DNA of 61,861 bases, filler included, from Globobulimina sp. (Eukaryota): NCBI GenBank assembly GCA_003354225.1. It is 28 parts of 28 records of this genome, joined end to end, with 100 filler letters (N's around TTAATTAATTAA, not from the genome) between each part and the next. Parts side by side here need not be neighbours in the genome. Positions count along the whole stretch, not along the records: positions 44,271 to 46,382 come from PIVH01008894.1; 27 more parts are not named here. One strand, written 5' to 3'. Positions 10,732 through 48,183 of this stretch are shown here, piece after piece. Under the pieces are notes generated by a model that ran no database searches, was not told the DNA's origin, and was given only the letters and a program-made list of their open reading frames with translations. Every line of letters begins with the position of its first letter. The stretch's first letter is position 1. The translations under genes were made by a program, and so were the position numbers.

Positions 10732-11073
10732 TTATATATTGAAGTAAAGAAAAATATATAAGACATTTGTTTTGAATGACATGTGTGTTTTTTTTGCTTT
10801 AATAAAAATTAAATTTTTATGTCAGTCCACAGATTTTTTCGAGCTCCAGTGAGAAAATCATTTCTAAGTCAGAAAAATAATCAGAAAAGTAAGAAAATCC
10901 TTTTTCAAACCAGAATTTGAAAACGCTGCAGCCTTGTATCAATACCAATCACTTCGCAGTTTTGTTAAGCACNNNNNNNNNNNNNNNNNNNNNNNNNNNN
11001 NNNNNNNNNNNNNNNNTTAATTAATTAANNNNNNNNNNNNNNNNNNNNNNNNNNNNNNNNNNNNNNNNNNNNA

Positions 11074-13186
11074 ATATCAGCCGGAGTATCAAGAGATGTG
11101 TTTGGAACATTTCCATTAAAAGGAAGACCATTAAATGTACGTGGTGTAGATGCCATCAAAATAATGAAAAATCAAGAAATATCAAACCTTAAAAAAATAT
11201 TAGGTTTAAAACAAGGATATAAATATACATCTTTATCATCATCAGAGGGACTTCGATATACTGGCTTAATCATACTTACAGATCAAGATTTTTTCGGATT
11301 CTCCATTAAAAATCTCATATTGAATATATTTCATGTATTCTGGCCAGAATTATTAAAACTTGGCTTCATTCATTTTGTTAATACACCAGTATTAAAAGCA
11401 ATAAGCAAAAAAGAAACGCATACATTTTATTCGATGCAAGCTTTTGAAAAATGGTCTGTTGTAAATGATGTAAAGAAATATCACATTAAGTTCTTTAAGG
11501 GATTGGGCGGACATGACAGCAAATCGGCAAAAGAAGCATTATCAAACATTGAAGATAAATTAATTAAATATACATTCACAACTGACAAGGATGACAAAGC
11601 TATGAAATTGGCATTTGACAAAAGTTTAGCAGATGACAGAAAACAATGGTTAATGAATTATGATCGCAATAATGTATTTGACCCAGTTGTCAGAAATCTT
11701 TCACTTGATGACAGTATTAATAAAGAATTAATTCATTTCTCAAAATATGATACCGCAATCGCAATACCAAGTGCTTTAGACGGTCTCAAAAATTCACAGA
11801 GAAAAATATTATATACTGGATTAAATTATGTAAAAGGCGAAACCAAGATCGCACGTCTCGCGGCAAAGATAAGTGAAGTCTCAGATTATCACCACGGTGA
11901 GAAATCATTAGAGAGTGCTCTAGTCGGTATGGCGCAAAACTTTGTTGCCAGTAATAATTGCAACTTGTTTGAACCATTAGGACAATTCGGAACACGTATT
12001 ATGGGTGGAAAAGATTTTGCGAGTTCTCGATATATATTCACGGAATTAAGTAAAATTACGAAAAAAATATTTAGAGATTCAGACTCTGTTCTTTTAGAAA
12101 GAAATATGTCAGATGATAATGACCCAATTGAACCTCGGTTTTATGCACCATGTATTCCAGTAATATTAATTAATGGAGCTCGTGGTATTGGAACTGGTTT
12201 CTCAACAAGTATATTACCGCATAGTGTTGAAGATGTTGTTAATGCAGTTAAAGATAAATTAAATAATAAAAAAGCAAAAAAATTACAACCACATTATCGC
12301 GGATTTAGAGGAGAAATTAACCCGGCTGAATCAAAAAAATATATCGCATCTGGCGCATATACAATTGATGAACCAAAAAACACAATAATTGTAACTGAAT
12401 TACCACCAGGTGTATGGACTGAGACTTATAAACAATATATTGAAACCCTAATTATTGATAGAAGCGCAGATAAAAAATTACAAAAGAAACAATTTATTAA
12501 GAACTACTTAAATTATTCATCGGAAAAAACCGTACGATTTGAAATTGAAGTTGAAAAGAAAATCTTTAAAGAATTAATGAAAAAGAAATCTACAATTACA
12601 AAATTGCTAAAATTAGAAACATCATTATCCGAAACAAACATGTATCTGTTTTATAAAGATGACAAAATCAGAAAATTTAAATCGGCAAATGAAATATTAG
12701 ATTATCATTATGCGATTAGATTACATTATTATGAATTACGAAAACAAAATATGATTAAAACATTATCAGCAAAAGTCACCGAATTAAAAAATAAATCTCG
12801 ATATATCAAGAGCGTAAATTCAGAAGAAATTAAACTACTTAGACAAACCGAAGAAAAATTAATTGCACAATTAGAAAAAGCCAAATTTGTAAAAATTAGT
12901 AACAATAAAGGAGTATTATCATATGACTATTTATTAGATATGAGACAACGTGCATTAACAATGAAATATGCAAATAAACTTGAAAGCGATTATAAAGAAT
13001 TAAATAAACAATTAGATGCATTAAAACGAAAAGATATTAAGGATATGTGGAGAGAAGATTTAGATGAAATCTTAATAGAAAATGAAAAATATAATGATAA
13101 ATTAACACATGATATGGAAGAAGAATTAAAGGAACAAGGAAAAGGTAAAAAAACAAAGAAAGCAGCTAAAAAAATTAGAAAAGTAC
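11074..13186 (+). CDS. TOP2: type IIA DNA topoisomerase (TOPRIM to C-gate), 5'-partial, giant-virus-like
   Basis: FPLKG, LRY, TDQD, KGLG, DGLKNSQRK, YHHGE, catalytic SSRYIFT, GIGTGFST; intronless and very AT-rich. Confidence 0.93.
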
Positions 13187-13286
13187 NNNNNNNNNNNNNN
13201 NNNNNNNNNNNNNNNNNNNNNNNNNNNNNNTTAATTAATTAANNNNNNNNNNNNNNNNNNNNNNNNNNNNNNNNNNNNNNNNNNNN

Positions 13287-31330: not shown

Positions 31331-31583
31331 GACTCAGTAGCTCAATGATAGAGCGTGTGTCTGCAGTTTCGGCTGTTCCACCCAACAAAAACTCAACATT
31401 GATTTTTTCAAACAATCCATTATGATTATTGAAAAAATTGGTTTGTATTTGCAGTAATAATACGACATTATATTGCAATGCAAATTAATTTCTAAACTCA
31501 TTGTTGCTCAACATAGAGATGCTCCAAATTAAATGTTATGGTTATAACTCACATGAATGTAGGTTTGAGTCCTACCTGAGTCA
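31331..31583 (+). ncRNA. tRNA-like element with a 183-nt structured insert after CTGCAG ('maxi' copy 1)
   Basis: acceptor GACTCAG/CTGAGTC-A, D stem GCTC/GAGC, T arm GTAGG TTTGAGT CCTAC; paralog at 45370-45571. Confidence 0.8.
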
Positions 31584-32581: not shown

Positions 32582-32645
32582 TGTGATGATTGGGATTTTA
32601 ACCCAAATATTCTTCAATAAGACGCTCTCTTTGAGCTATCATCAC
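32582..32645 (-). ncRNA. 64-nt tRNA-like element with stub anticodon arm ('mini' copy 2)
   Basis: GTGATGA TA GCTC AAAGA GAGC G TCTT ATTG AAGA ATAT TTGGG TTAAAAT CCCAA TCATCAC A. Confidence 0.75.
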
Positions 32646-44170: not shown

Positions 44171-45369
44171 NNNNNNNNNNNNNNNNNNNNNNNNNNNNNN
44201 NNNNNNNNNNNNNNTTAATTAATTAANNNNNNNNNNNNNNNNNNNNNNNNNNNNNNNNNNNNNNNNNNNNATGTATAAATATACATCAATATTATGCAGT
44301 TTAAAACAAGAAGAAAGCTGCAAGTGATATTAACTTGAGACAAAACATATTTGGATTGGTTTGCGTCAACATCATTCCTTATTAACACCTCTTTCCAAAT
44401 ATGCAATATTAAGATACTCAGTAGTTATCATCTTACTTTCTTCTTTTTTTTTCGATTACAATGATGAATCAAAAAAAGATAACAATTATTTGCATTTTGT
44501 GTTTCTCAATAGTGAATAGGCATAAATTTATGATTGACTCAAAAAGGCACCATTTGTGCTCAAGGATGCAGCTATCGGAATAAATCAGACAATTTAAAGA
44601 TGTTGCGCAAAAACGTTTTAGTAAACTAGTTGTAGTGATATCGGAAAAAACACAAAAATCAATAAAAAATAGAAATAATAATCTAATCTCCTTCAGAATG
44701 TGGAGAGAGGTAGCTAAGGACAGCTATATGATGAGAAATAAATTGCTCACACACAAGTGTCTATAGCGCGATCATCGAAATGCATCCATCAATTTCAAAA
44801 GCGATAGAAATAATGAATAAACATTCAAAAGCGGTGTATTTAGAATGATAAAATCATTCCGTACGTAGCCTCACGCTCAACAGAGCTCTGCTCACTATCA
44901 ACGATATAAATATCTTTCTTCATCATCAGGAGTTTTTAGGGGGTTGTTTCGAAGACTTGTGATTAAGAATATTTCCTATAGAAATGATCCTGTACAAGTA
45001 TTTCCTTAAAGAATAATATTTTCTCATTTGCTAACTCCACTTTCCTGCCATTCCCATCAAATATCTATAATTAAATTCCATGCAAATCAATTCCATTTAT
45101 GGTACGGTAGGTACCGGTATTATATCCAATTCAGTTCAGTTCAGTTCCAATCACAATTAAATAACTCACTTAATGCTGCTCCATCTGATCTGATCTGATC
45201 GATCTATTATGTGTGTTTCAGTGTTGAGTGTGCCATGAGTGCCATGCTCAGATCAGATGAATTTAATTTAATGTTTGACTGTTTTGTTTTTGAGTAAAAA
45301 ATAAATGTACGAACACAAAACACAAATTTAATTACAAATTGTTGATGCAAAAAAAAATAAACTTTGTGT

Positions 45370-45571
45370 TGACTCAGATAGGATTCAAACCTATATCTAT
45401 GTGGACTATACCAACAACATTTGGTTGTGTATTATATTTAAGGTGTTGGCAAACAAATTGCTTTTAAACTTGGTTTAGTTTAATTTTATCATATTGAGAA
45501 AAGGTTGGTTGTTGGGGGGGGACACAGCCGAAGCTGCAGACACACGCTCTATCAAATTGAGCTACTGAGTC
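45370..45571 (-). ncRNA. tRNA-like element with a 130-nt structured insert after CTGCAG ('maxi' copy 2)
   Basis: same acceptor and D stems as 31331; T arm ATAGG TTTGAAT CCTAT; long T-run about 12 nt downstream. Confidence 0.8.
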
Positions 45572-46190
45572 TTGTATATTGCTTGTGCTTAACATAATTA
45601 TTTGCGCTATATATGTTGCTATCGAATGGCACACAAATATTTATGGTATGCACAGTCGATCTGCTACATTCTCACTGTTAATATATTAAATTAATTATAA
45701 AATATGTAATATATATTTAATATTTGCAATTGATTCATTATAAAATAAAAATGTATTATAAATTAAATTAAAACGGATTGAGAAACGAATTTGATTGTTA
45801 TTGTTTACTATGAATACTAGTAGTACTAAATTGAGAGGCAGCAATATATGATATCAATATCATTGATATGAATGCGTACGTTGTGTAACTGTAACAACAA
45901 TAAAATTATATGTACATCATGAATTAATTCCATGTGGCTCCAGTTGAATGACGTCATTTTATTCTATGCTATTCATGTGAGCGATGAATATAATTAAGTT
46001 GAATGAGTCATGCCTTGCAAATTGGTTTGTGATTGTTTCTGATGTTTGAAGTGTGACTTAAGTGAAAACCTAGAAACATTACATTTTACTGCATTGGATG
46101 ACATTTAATAATTGTTTAATATTTGATTGCTTTATTGGTGGTGTTGAAAAACACCTGGTAAAAAATAAAAAAAGTAATTAATTTATTGAT

Positions 46191-46482: not shown

Positions 46483-48183
46483 CAAATTCAAATAAATCTC
46501 GAAAAGGGAATTTTTCAAAGTTATGTACAACTTACCAAACTTTAAATCTCCAGGAAAAGATGGAGTAAATGGTTTTGTAACGAAAATGGCTTTGCCCATA
46601 ATTGGTGACATGCTATATAAAATTTTCAATCTGTCACTAAAAACTGGTATTTTCCCAGATGTTTGGAAGGAATCTGTTATTATCCCAATCCACAAGTCAG
46701 GATCTCTTGGTGAACCTGCAAACCACCGTCCTATCTCATTGCTCCCTCTATCTGGAAAAGCATTAGAAAGATTTGCCTATGAACAATTATACAACCATGT
46801 CATAAATTATGTGAATCCCCAGCAGTTTGGATTTTTACGAGGACGTTCAACTGAAACTGCAATTCTTAAAATTACAGATGCAATTTACTCAGCCATTCAA
46901 AGTAAACATCTTACATCATTGGTCCTTTTGGATATGTCTAGGGCGTTTGATTGCGTCAATCATGAAATTCTAATTGCCAAACTGGAGCAGTATGGAATTG
47001 CTGGCTCTGAACTCCTTTGGTTTAAGTCATACCTCTCAAATCGAAAACAAACTGTCAGAATGGGAACTCAGACATCACCACTTCTCCATGTATCGACGGG
47101 TGTACCCCAAGGGTCAGTTTTGGGCCCTTTGTTGTTCCTTATCTACATAAATGATTTGCCTAGAATAGTCAAGAATTGTGAATGTACTATGTTTGCCGAT
47201 GACATCCAACTTCGATTTGCTTTTCGCCCTGATAATGTACAAAATGCTTATGATCAAATTCAGTCAGACCTAAATGATATTGCTGTTTGGTGCATGAACA
47301 ATTGCCTAAAAATTAATTCTACCAAATCACAGGTGGTAACAGTTGGGACAAGCCAAAATCGGCGACTGTTAAACAATGTCCCAGATCTGACACTTTCAAA
47401 TGAAAGATTAATATGTGTACCTGAAGCCAAAAACCTTGGTGTGATATTTGACGAAAATATGAACTTTTTTGCGCATCTAAAATCTGTGTCAAAACGATGC
47501 AAAAGTGACTTATTTGCAATAAGCCGTGTAAAGGACTGTATACCTCGAAAAATTCTTATTCAAACAATTGAAACAACTGTCTTTTCGAAACTATATTATG
47601 CTGCCTCTGTAATCCATGCAGCTCCTGTGTCATATGTGGATCAAACCATGCTTCGAGTGGTTAATTATGCAGCAAAAATGGTTTACGGCCTTAGAAAATA
47701 TGATCATGCCACTGAATGTAGAAACAAACTTCATTGGAAAGATGCCACAACTGAACTCAAATATCGAACCCAACTGATGGCCTATAAATTATTTATCGAT
47801 CATAATCCAGTCGGACAATTGACTTTCAGCAATTGCAGGCGTTCAAGCCGATTGAACCGAGTACCGAAATTTGAGATACCATCCTTCACAACTGGTGCAG
47901 CCAAAAGAGCATTCAGTTACAGAGCTCCATTATTGTTAAATGAACTTTGTGAAATTTTAGATGTAAACTGTTCCTCGCCCATATGCTATTCCAAATTTAA
48001 ATCACCATTGAAAAGGTTTTATGACAGTTAATTTTATTCTAGTCTTATAATTTTGGTATGTAACTGTATATGTATATGTAATGTGTCACTTCCCTTGTGT
48101 CATGATTCATTATTCTCATAATTAACCATGTGACTAGTTAACGCTATATCACTTGGGAAGTATAAAACTTGAAACTTAAACTT
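46483..48183 (+). mobile_element. non-LTR retrotransposon (CR1/L2 group) 3' half: RT ORF 46523-48031, 3' UTR and AAACTT(G) tail
   Basis: HRPISLL, QFGF, LDMSRAFD, GVPQGSVLGPLLFLIYINDL, FADD, KNLGV; in-frame TAA at 46493-46495 suggests an inactive copy. Confidence 0.93.

Follow-up and report, generated by a model that had tools for sequence, protein, structure and literature searches.

On the minus strand of the 61,861-nt window of Globobulimina sp. DNA (assembly GCA_003354225.1; by the window we mean the whole stretch of DNA that was analysed), the stretch at positions 45370-45571 is a transfer RNA (tRNA)-type gene with the anticodon GCA and a long, 128-nt insert at the usual place of a tRNA intron. 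The gene belongs to a family with a second copy in the window and seven homologues on public contigs, for which the name 'maxi' genes is used here. Our favoured reading, in which confidence and doubt are about evenly balanced, is that of a family of nuclear tRNA genes that RNA polymerase III (Pol III) transcribes, with the anticodon GCA, each carrying a very long, protein-spliced intron at the 37/38 position. Given several non-canonical features, a tRNA-like RNA that is never spliced is a serious rival, which we hold to be possible rather than probable.

Architecture of the GCA gene and its relatives

The Rfam tRNA model (RF00005) matched the gene at 45370-45571, termed copy 2, with 42.1 bits (gathering score 29) over the full model (positions 1-71), the anticodon loop containing an insertion of 131 nt. 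Run with the intron option, ARAGORN annotated copy 2 as tRNA-Cys(gca) with an intron of 128 nt; this option was needed, the default settings having returned zero tRNAs in the whole window. According to the alignments, the 5' exon (45534-45571, minus strand) is composed of the acceptor 5' strand (GACUCAG), the D arm with the stem GCUC/GAGC, which we take to resemble that of eukaryotic tRNA-Cys, the 5' strand of the anticodon stem (UGUGU) and the loop CUGCAG, corresponding to C32-U33-G34-C35-A36-G37. Fold, ARAGORN and alignment place the 128-nt intron at 45406-45533 (minus strand), in the canonical 37/38 position, with a boundary that can be slid by 2 nt in copy 2 owing to an AG repeat. The 3' exon (45370-45405, minus strand), as delimited by Rfam and the alignment, contains position 38, the 3' strand of the anticodon stem (CCACA), a 5-nt variable loop, the T arm (AUAGG-UUUGAAU-CCUAU), the acceptor 3' strand (CUGAGUC) and the discriminator A73.

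Pol III signals are all present in copy 2. What we take to be the A box (TAGCTCAA...) and the B box (GGTTTGAATCC) stand at the expected places, and a terminator-like run of nine T in the RNA sense is found at 45349-45357 (minus strand), starting 13 nt beyond the gene end. A TATATAG box is located upstream at 45609-45615 (minus strand), at about -38 to -44. The first-pass annotation of this stretch had in effect described a pre-tRNA, though not under that name, and a Pol III-type gene with such geometry was borne out: all of the features that it listed are in the sequence, with the minus strand as the RNA sense, including TATATA upstream (45609-45614, -38 to -43 from the gene start) and the long T-run downstream. 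The insert stands exactly at the site of eukaryotic tRNA introns.

The paralogue, copy 1, lies on the plus strand at 31331-31583 and has the same exons, with a 181-nt intron at 31367-31547. It gave no Rfam tRNA match, even in a sensitive scan, and was assigned by homology to the other family members. ARAGORN with the intron option put the intron elsewhere in copy 1 and in one metagenome relative (L001), missed another (L004) and returned 134 nt for a third (L003). The ARAGORN alternative for copy 1, a tRNA-Ile(tat) with an intron at 31/32, was rejected, as the CUGCAG loop is invariant in 9/9 family members, which argues for GCA. The insert of copy 1 is indeed longer, unrelated and rich in hairpins, as had been described in the first pass; the architecture is common to the copies and the cores differ.

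When a 20-nt pattern from the exon was used to scan metagenome contigs, five loci were obtained, of which L001, L003 and L004 (the marine relatives) carry inserts of 143, 134 and 137 nt, respectively. The remaining two, L002 and L005, were dropped as chance matches, having only a weak, sub-cut-off match to a bacterial small RNA family and no tRNA-type gene. A scan of genome contigs yielded four short AT-rich contigs in a bacterial metagenome-assembled genome (MAG; L006-L009, with L010-L013 denoting the whole contigs), with inserts of 117-129 nt; the intron range over all seven public-contig homologues is 117-143 nt. Zero matches to the gene family were obtained in a scan of viral contigs. The two window copies, the three metagenome contigs and the four MAG contigs were aligned, and the counts given below refer to these nine sequences unless stated otherwise.

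At least 19 short AT-rich contigs of the 'bacterial' MAG record (L006-L028) carry tRNA or tRNA-like genes, with a GC content of 28-40% among the 15 contigs measured. Among them are the maxi genes, a family of short 'mini' tRNA-like genes, a tRNA-Tyr interrupted by an 11-nt intron, U3-like genes and further odd tRNA-like genes, e.g., those of L019, L020 and L023. Because of the U3-like gene and the intron-bearing tRNA-Tyr, the contigs filed in the bacterial MAG look eukaryotic and mis-binned.

Conservation and predicted processing

Pair counts showed the T stem to be 100% paired (45/45 cells); at three of its five pairs, both partners have changed (A-U/G-C, U-A/C-G and A-U/C-G). The acceptor and D stems were also 100% paired and near-invariant, and the anticodon stem kept four of five pairs, all four being invariant. 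The anticodon-intron hairpin GCAGC(UUCG)GCUGU (45524-45537, minus strand), evident from pair counts and constrained folds, holds G34-C35-A36-G37 and the 5' splice site; 100% of its cells were paired, with one C-G to U-G change. The C(UUCG)G tetraloop reported in the first pass (45528-45533) lies within this 5-bp hairpin. Zero pairs changed on both sides were counted in slid control registers. The compensatory changes at three of five T-stem pairs, with none in the slid controls, imply that the cloverleaf is under selection, and the pair counts indicate the same for the anticodon-intron hairpin.

The helix CCAACAAC/GUUGUUGG, which closes the insert, was paired in 76% of cells, without convincing covariation. 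In copy 2, the fold gives its 5' strand (CCAACAAC in the RNA sense) at 45508-45515 and, together with the alignment, its 3' strand (GUUGUUGG in the RNA sense) at 45411-45418, within the conserved 3' end of the intron, both on the minus strand. The first-pass pairing of CCAACAAC (45411-45418) with GTTGTTGG (45508-45515) is accurate, forming a perfect 8-bp complement.

The 5' exon was found to be invariant in 9/9 sequences, except for one A2>G change and the length of the D loop. Mean pairwise identity was 98% over intron bases 1-10, 64% over bases 11-30, 38% in the core and 66% over the last 22 bases, and amounted to 83% for the 3' exon. Between the AT-rich and the GC-richer lineages, where flanks and cores are unalignable, the 5' exon and the intron start are unchanged. 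The loop reads C32, U33, GCA and G37 in 9/9 and would close to 7 nt once the insert is excised.

In the favoured reading, transcription would start about 5-10 nt upstream of the gene, driven by the internal A and B boxes together with an upstream block and the TATA box, and would stop at the run of nine T. The pre-tRNA would fold into the cloverleaf on which covariation points to selection, and the first ten intron bases would fold back onto G34-G37, giving a UUCG-capped anticodon-intron helix of conserved pairing. The remaining intron would loop out, and the CCAACAAC/GUUGUUGG pairing, which is conserved only loosely, would bring it back to a 3' splice site that is single-stranded; constrained folds of the nine sequences predict this site to be mostly unpaired, with P(unpaired) at position 38 ranging from 0.57 to 1.0. 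The tRNA splicing endonuclease, measuring from the tRNA body, would cut after G37 and before position 38, and a ligase would join the 74-nt tRNA, with the intron freed as linear or circular RNA. Only the intron ends would be constrained, by folding and processing, and the core would drift by neutral substitutions and indels, which would explain why the 'cargo' differs between copies.

Of the sequencing runs listed as containing the stretch, none was on record as RNA, and the best had 0.20 of the sampled words. Contigs of unknown or guessed kind from four sequencing runs bridge the 3' exon-intron junction in run X2 and, by one contig, the 5' junction in run X4; there was no exon-exon contig, and contigs of run X1 had a summed depth far higher over the exon regions than over the core. 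Neither the bridging nor the depth was used as evidence, and such contigs cannot show splicing or its absence, expression or copy number. In run X2, with adapter abutting the gene, the 3' exon and the conserved 3' third of the intron (45378-45457) had 20-40x the summed contig depth of the 5' exon; this would fit a stable intron-3'-exon species and is a lead only, contig depth being unable to rank gene parts.

Departures from canonical tRNAs, genomic context and rival readings

Several features weigh against a spliced, decoding tRNA. The family scores 35.6-45.8 bits with the Rfam tRNA model vs. 67 bits for a neighbouring tRNA-Arg, and the model overlooks copy 1, L004 and L006 altogether. Positions 31 and 39 pair in 0/9 sequences. 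The D loop, 7-16 nt in length, is devoid of GG and contains a single G only in 9/9, position 56 is U in 6/9, and the set of elbow nucleotides G18-G19, U54-U55-C56 and A58 is not intact; both GG and UUCGA are present in the ordinary tRNAs that contigs of the same records carry. The T loop of L004 is aberrant (CUCAUAU). The discriminator is A in 7/9, G in L008 and U in L009, in contrast to U73, which PMC9976931 describes for E. coli and yeast as a major determinant of cysteine identity; G1-C72 with A73 is not the Cys pattern, whereas the anticodon GCA (9/9) and G37 are those of tRNA-Cys.

Two of these points concern splicing itself. As read by eye from the alignment, the anticodon-intron pair (32 with intron -3) is absent in 9/9, C32 facing U or C, though in a control tRNA-Tyr, which has an intron of 11 nt and lies on a contig of the MAG record of the close homologues (L014:518-603), C32:G(-3) is present, likewise by eye. 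In constrained folds, the 5' splice site lies within the UUCG hairpin in 9/9, with a predicted P(unpaired) of <=0.16 at G37 and of <=0.18 for positions 34-37 and intron base 1; the 5' splice site thus being buried, the hairpin would have to open for cleavage. Two competing folds, as raised in the first pass, are conceivable. In addition, clearly non-decoding tRNA-like families are present in the same genomes.

Much of this would suit a tRNA-like RNA that is made by Pol III, does not decode and is about 200-250 nt long. Its insert would never be removed and would form a long arm that replaces the anticodon arm. A handle would be provided by the acceptor, D and T domains for RNase P, RNase Z, CCA addition and stability; the base of the arm (UUCG hairpin, C-rich strand and GUUGUUGG strand) would be the conserved functional part, with the tip free to vary; and the RNA would be the large counterpart of the 64-nt mini tRNA-like genes in the same genome. 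Such an RNA would accommodate a D loop that lacks GG across distant relatives, the unpaired 31:39, A73, the missing anticodon-intron pair, the buried splice site and intron bases 1-10 that are more conserved than the 3' exon, but it fits poorly with the decoding-type C32, U33 and G37, with the 7-nt loop left on removal of the insert and with the placement of the insert precisely at 37/38. Moreover, anticodon-intron pairing is normal for pre-tRNAs, the tip of the arm has no conserved structure or sequence, and the insert matches no known RNA family at E up to 10.

The 64-nt mini genes lie at 2228-2291 and 32582-32645 in the window, both on the minus strand, and at L018:257-320 and L022:87-150. 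They gave Rfam tRNA scores of 45.7 and 47.3 bits. The D and T arms are present, as is the entire acceptor stem (GUGAUGA/UCAUCAC), but a stub of only 12 nt (3-4 bp and a 4-6-nt loop) stands in for the 17-nt anticodon arm, and the mini genes therefore cannot decode. They are kept in a related organism, with U-A/C-G covariation in the D stem (GCUU/AAGC vs. GCUC/GAGC), and are by sequence a family separate from the maxi genes. We take them to resemble mascRNA. For the maxi genes, the mini family bears on the unspliced alternative in that stub anticodon arm and D-stem covariation point to non-decoding tRNA shapes being in use; it is these shapes, together with the non-canonical features listed above, that led us to give an unspliced RNA the weight of a doubtful but serious competitor.

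The flanks of copy 2 bear on the same question. An upstream block, ATACCATAAATATTTGTGTGC ... CATATATAGC, which lies between about -80 and -37, is common to copy 2 and its four close homologues, and ATACCATAAATATTTGTGTGC is invariant in 5/5 flanks; the TATA box is kept in 5/5 upstream flanks as well. The T-run is found at the same place after the gene in 4/4 close homologues and in the window, and several further downstream blocks are common to the five. From the flank alignment, the conserved block, taken here as about -77 to -45, starts with TACCATAAAT (45639-45648, minus strand), a candidate snRNA (small nuclear RNA)-type proximal promoter element. This exact 10-mer has just two occurrences in the window, one upstream of copy 2 and the other (45095-45104) upstream of a U3-like small nucleolar RNA (snoRNA) gene, each at the same spacing of about 26 nt from TATAG (~45060-45070 before the U3-like gene), with two instances only to define this spacing.

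The U3-like gene (44890-45007, minus strand) lies about 360 bp downstream of copy 2 on the same strand and matched RF01848 with 27.9 bits (E 0.16), below the cut-off; the window contains what we take to be the U3 box A. The order of tRNA-type gene and U3-like gene, about 400 nt apart, recurs in L010, L011 and L013, where the U3 matches are 26.8-29.8 bits, all below Rfam cut-offs. The linkage is thus seen in the window and in 3/3 relatives' contigs that are long enough for testing; copy 1 and the marine copies have other contexts, without a U3 gene. An upstream block and TATA matching those before the U3-like gene, as in snRNA-type genes, and the linkage to U3 speak for the unspliced alternative, as does the proximity to signal recognition particle (SRP) RNA and U2 genes in marine relatives.

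In L001 and L003, the cluster order is SRP RNA, tRNA-type gene, tRNA-Arg(CCG) and tRNA-Sec, with U2 next in L001; L004 (1-1220) has the tRNA-type gene, tRNA-Arg and tRNA-Sec together. The tRNA-Arg and tRNA-Sec beside the marine copies are ordinary tRNA genes, and this neighbourhood favours the reading as a spliced tRNA, as do the conserved T-run, TATA box and upstream block. In these GC-richer relatives (L001:1-925, L003:1-980 and L004), the spacers among the three tRNA-type genes are just 13-16 nt. The clustering suggests a polycistronic precursor. The spacers read in L001 and L003 are without a T-run.

It is conceivable, though not the likeliest outcome, that the maxi genes are no ordinary cysteine tRNA genes but a conserved family of tRNA-shaped Pol III RNAs with an snRNA-type promoter, situated beside U3, SRP RNA and U2 genes, in which the anticodon would be locked in the UUCG hairpin and the long arm, or the excised insert, would function through its conserved ends, which are the first 10 nt and the strands CCCAACAAC (C-rich) and GUUGUUGG.

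An improbable explanation is that of a decaying tRNA pseudogene or passenger in a repeat unit of about 1 kb that was duplicated for its U3 gene, with the insert as junk in a dead gene. The first-pass annotation had itself considered segmental duplication with decay. This applies to the four copies of the related organism, which share both flanks over hundreds of bases, three of them showing the U3-like gene, and whose insert cores differ by indels yet keep patches of homology; it does not extend to copies 1 and 2, which have no common flank beyond about 14 nt upstream. A/T-rich D-loop expansions of up to 16 nt and a discriminator of A, G or U among those four copies, as well as the aberrant T loop of L004, would also be expected of a passenger. 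A dead gene is, however, hard to reconcile with a T stem that is compensated at three pairs and paired in every cell, with a 5' exon and intron start that are invariant across lineages with unalignable flanks and cores, with copy 1 and marine copies in contexts without U3, and with conserved promoter-like and terminator-like signals.

Further features were observed around the tRNA-type gene. Between it and the U3-like gene, blocks conserved in the four close homologues are found at 45060-45340 (minus strand), among them GCATCAACAATTTG right after the terminator and CATTTATTTTTTACTCAAAAACAAAACAGTCAAACATTAAATTCATC, with a GTGAGT resembling a splice donor further along; no Rfam family matches these blocks. 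A reverse-transcriptase domain (RVT_1, E 4e-32) is encoded by a 502-aa open reading frame (ORF) at 46523-48031 (plus strand), which starts about 950 bp upstream of the gene, and a match to the histone 3' stem-loop family at 46116-46160 (minus strand) reached 31.2 bits, just below the cut-off of 34. The window as a whole is AT-rich (~33% GC), gene-dense and that of a cellular eukaryote, with Pfam matches to NOL10, eIF3i, SAC3/GANP, Hyccin, an RCC1 protein, reverse transcriptase and others; a giant-virus origin was rejected, as NOL10, eIF3i, SAC3/GANP and Hyccin are cellular genes. Its topoisomerase II is about equidistant from the animal and yeast enzymes. The closest database relatives of this ORF (11029-13242, plus strand) have 36-52% identity and are mostly unnamed metagenome proteins; many of these carry intein/homing-endonuclease domains, and the window copy is without such an insertion in the part searched. 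Pairs of 44-base N runs recur every ~2214 bases (first pair 2116-2159 and 2172-2215; 2376 N in total), interrupting several ORFs, and one pair is situated directly downstream of the first mini gene.

The insert core and comparison with known systems

The variable core of the intron of copy 2 (45449-45502, minus strand), its most divergent segment, contains the three small hairpins of the first-pass annotation, i.e., TTTTCTCA/TGATAAAA at 45484-45502 (7/8 pairs), TTAAACT/AGTTTAA at 45464-45483 (7/7 pairs) and GCAA/TTGC at 45449-45461. The 128-nt insert folds at -16.1 kcal/mol compared with -13.1 +/- 2.7 kcal/mol for 500 dinucleotide shuffles (z -1.13), 71 of which fold as well or better; folding is thus no better than in shuffled controls, the result that had been named in the first pass as speaking against a selected fold. 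A perfect helix of >=8 bp occurred in 87/1000 and one of >=7 bp in 321/1000 mononucleotide shuffles of the insert. The whole 202 nt gave z -3.73, with 0/200 shuffles as good, a value owed to the stems of the tRNA and to the UUCG hairpin. Copy 1 has a borderline insert (z -1.76, with 25/500 shuffles folding at least as well), and the inserts of L009, L006 and L007 behaved like shuffles (z -0.96, -1.25 and -0.01, respectively).

The inserts of L009 and L006 are homologous to that of copy 2, and the three small hairpins sit in the most variable part of this trio, with 46%, 75% and 50% of cells paired (copy 2 counted) and zero compensatory changes. The closing helix is invariant in the trio, and the 3' third of the insert, predicted to be unpaired, is nearly identical. 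L007 and L008 carry a third insert type that still has patches in common with the copy-2 type, e.g., a 14-mer. The comparison indicates that the insert core evolves by substitutions and indels, without visible constraint on structure, and the core appears to be neutral filler. The earlier proposal that structure is kept while the cargo turns over is not supported, given cores that fold like shuffles in copy 2 and three relatives and the loss of the small hairpins in L009 and L006.

A sensitive cmscan of the insert at E up to 10 gave no credible family. A snoRNA or microRNA in the insert was rejected, the only matches having E >=2.9, and so was a telomerase-RNA template in the C-rich strand, there being no repeat-and-a-half, a region that varies between copies and a multi-copy family. 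Insertion of a miniature inverted-repeat transposable element was dismissed, as no target duplication was found and the insert ends are common to all homologues. Complementarity of the insert within the window was confined to matches of <=26 nt with E >=0.087.

The first-pass annotation had also suggested that TATAG can pair with CTGCA, in competition with the UUCG hairpin. In copy 2, UAUAG (45406-45410) can indeed pair with CUGCA (45535-45539) at four of five positions, but this register exists only in copy 2 and L009; the other seven sequences have A at intron position -1, opposite C32, and hence no such register. The corresponding model, a structured cargo in which selection keeps the fold and the sequence turns over, in an RNA switching between the UUCG hairpin and an anticodon-intron fold, is very unlikely: some core hairpins do occur in all copies, copy 1 has a long, near-perfect hairpin in its borderline insert, and a weak alternative pairing of U33-A(-4), G34-U(-5) and C35-G(-6) is read from the alignment in 6/9 with all three together, yet the insert z-scores of copy 2 and its relatives are those of shuffles, 7- and 8-bp helices are common by chance, the three hairpins are lost in close homologues without a compensatory pair and the TATAG/CTGCA register is restricted to 2/9. 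The first-pass interpretation is accordingly partly supported, as regards the Pol III pre-tRNA-like gene and not as regards structural conservation of the cargo.

Compared with canonical protein-spliced tRNA introns, the maxi genes have in common the cloverleaf exons, the insert right after position 37, the anticodon-intron pairing and a predicted single-stranded 3' splice site; with canonical intron-bearing tRNA genes they share A and B boxes, a T-run terminator and a multi-copy family with differing introns. They differ from canonical pre-tRNAs in having no 32/-3 pair, a 5' splice site in a helix, no G18-G19 and a 31:39 mismatch, and from canonical tRNA introns in that conservation over intron bases 1-10 is on a par with that of exons. 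Length is a further difference: according to PMC4090602, canonical eukaryotic tRNA introns on record span 6-133 nt, the 117-181 nt seen here lying at the upper end of this span or past it, and the splicing endonuclease follows a ruler mechanism, measuring from the tRNA body. A tRNA intron of ~64 nt was called 'unusually long' in a green alga (PMC13578239).

A further comparison is with Drosophila tRNA:Tyr CR31905/tric31905, the 113-nt intron of which is, according to PMC4536317, conserved, 'unusually large', spliced and circularised. Both introns are unusually large with internal conservation, and a stable intron RNA could likewise result from the maxi genes, by way of a gene nested within a gene. 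The fly intron keeps its secondary structure, with covariation at many pairs, and its circularisation is demonstrated, whereas here only the ends are conserved and core covariation is nil; the isotype is Tyr there, as opposed to the GCA anticodon here.

A tRNA-derived short interspersed element was rejected as an explanation, since the insert is followed by the T arm and by the acceptor 3' strand, with pairing to the 5' end, and the flanks are conserved promoter-like and terminator-like blocks, not duplications. The sensitive cmscan of 45340-45600 (E up to 10) listed tRNA and two chance matches (E 6) to unrelated families; vault RNA was rejected, RF00006 not being among them. In trypanosomatids, tRNA and snRNA genes are divergent and about 100 bp apart, whereas here the two genes share a strand, the tRNA-type gene being ~360-440 bp upstream of U3. 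A likeness to the trypanosomatid arrangement is given by the linkage of the tRNA-type gene with U3, SRP RNA and U2 genes; according to PMC4950102, the promoter of trypanosomatid snRNA genes is supplied by an adjacent tRNA or tRNA-like gene. External snRNA-type or mixed Pol III promoters are named for vertebrate tRNA-Sec, U6 and vault RNA genes in PMC2943599, and the conserved upstream block and TATA before the tRNA-shaped gene resemble these, with a putative promoter role.

What makes the maxi genes stand out is the combination of extreme intron length, an intron start conserved to the degree of an exon, the lack of hallmarks of identity and splicing, and an snRNA-type context. A full-text literature search in a limited library on long tRNA introns and intron-bearing Cys-GCA genes returned no report of this gene family. 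Several copies escape the Rfam tRNA model and ARAGORN when run without the intron option, so that annotations of the lineage could lack an entire tRNA family. If spliced, these introns, at 117-181 nt, would be among the longest on record at the canonical position, measured against the 6-133 nt stated in the review PMC4090602. With an intron start conserved like an exon, yet no anticodon-intron pair and no U73, the family offers a natural test of endonuclease site choice. It is also a test case for tRNA-shaped genes evolving into non-decoding RNAs. Should the maxi genes prove to be a conserved tRNA-shaped RNA family of their own, the possibility that we rate as doubtful, they would imply, together with the mini genes, that this protist lineage has put the tRNA fold to general use as a scaffold of non-coding RNAs.

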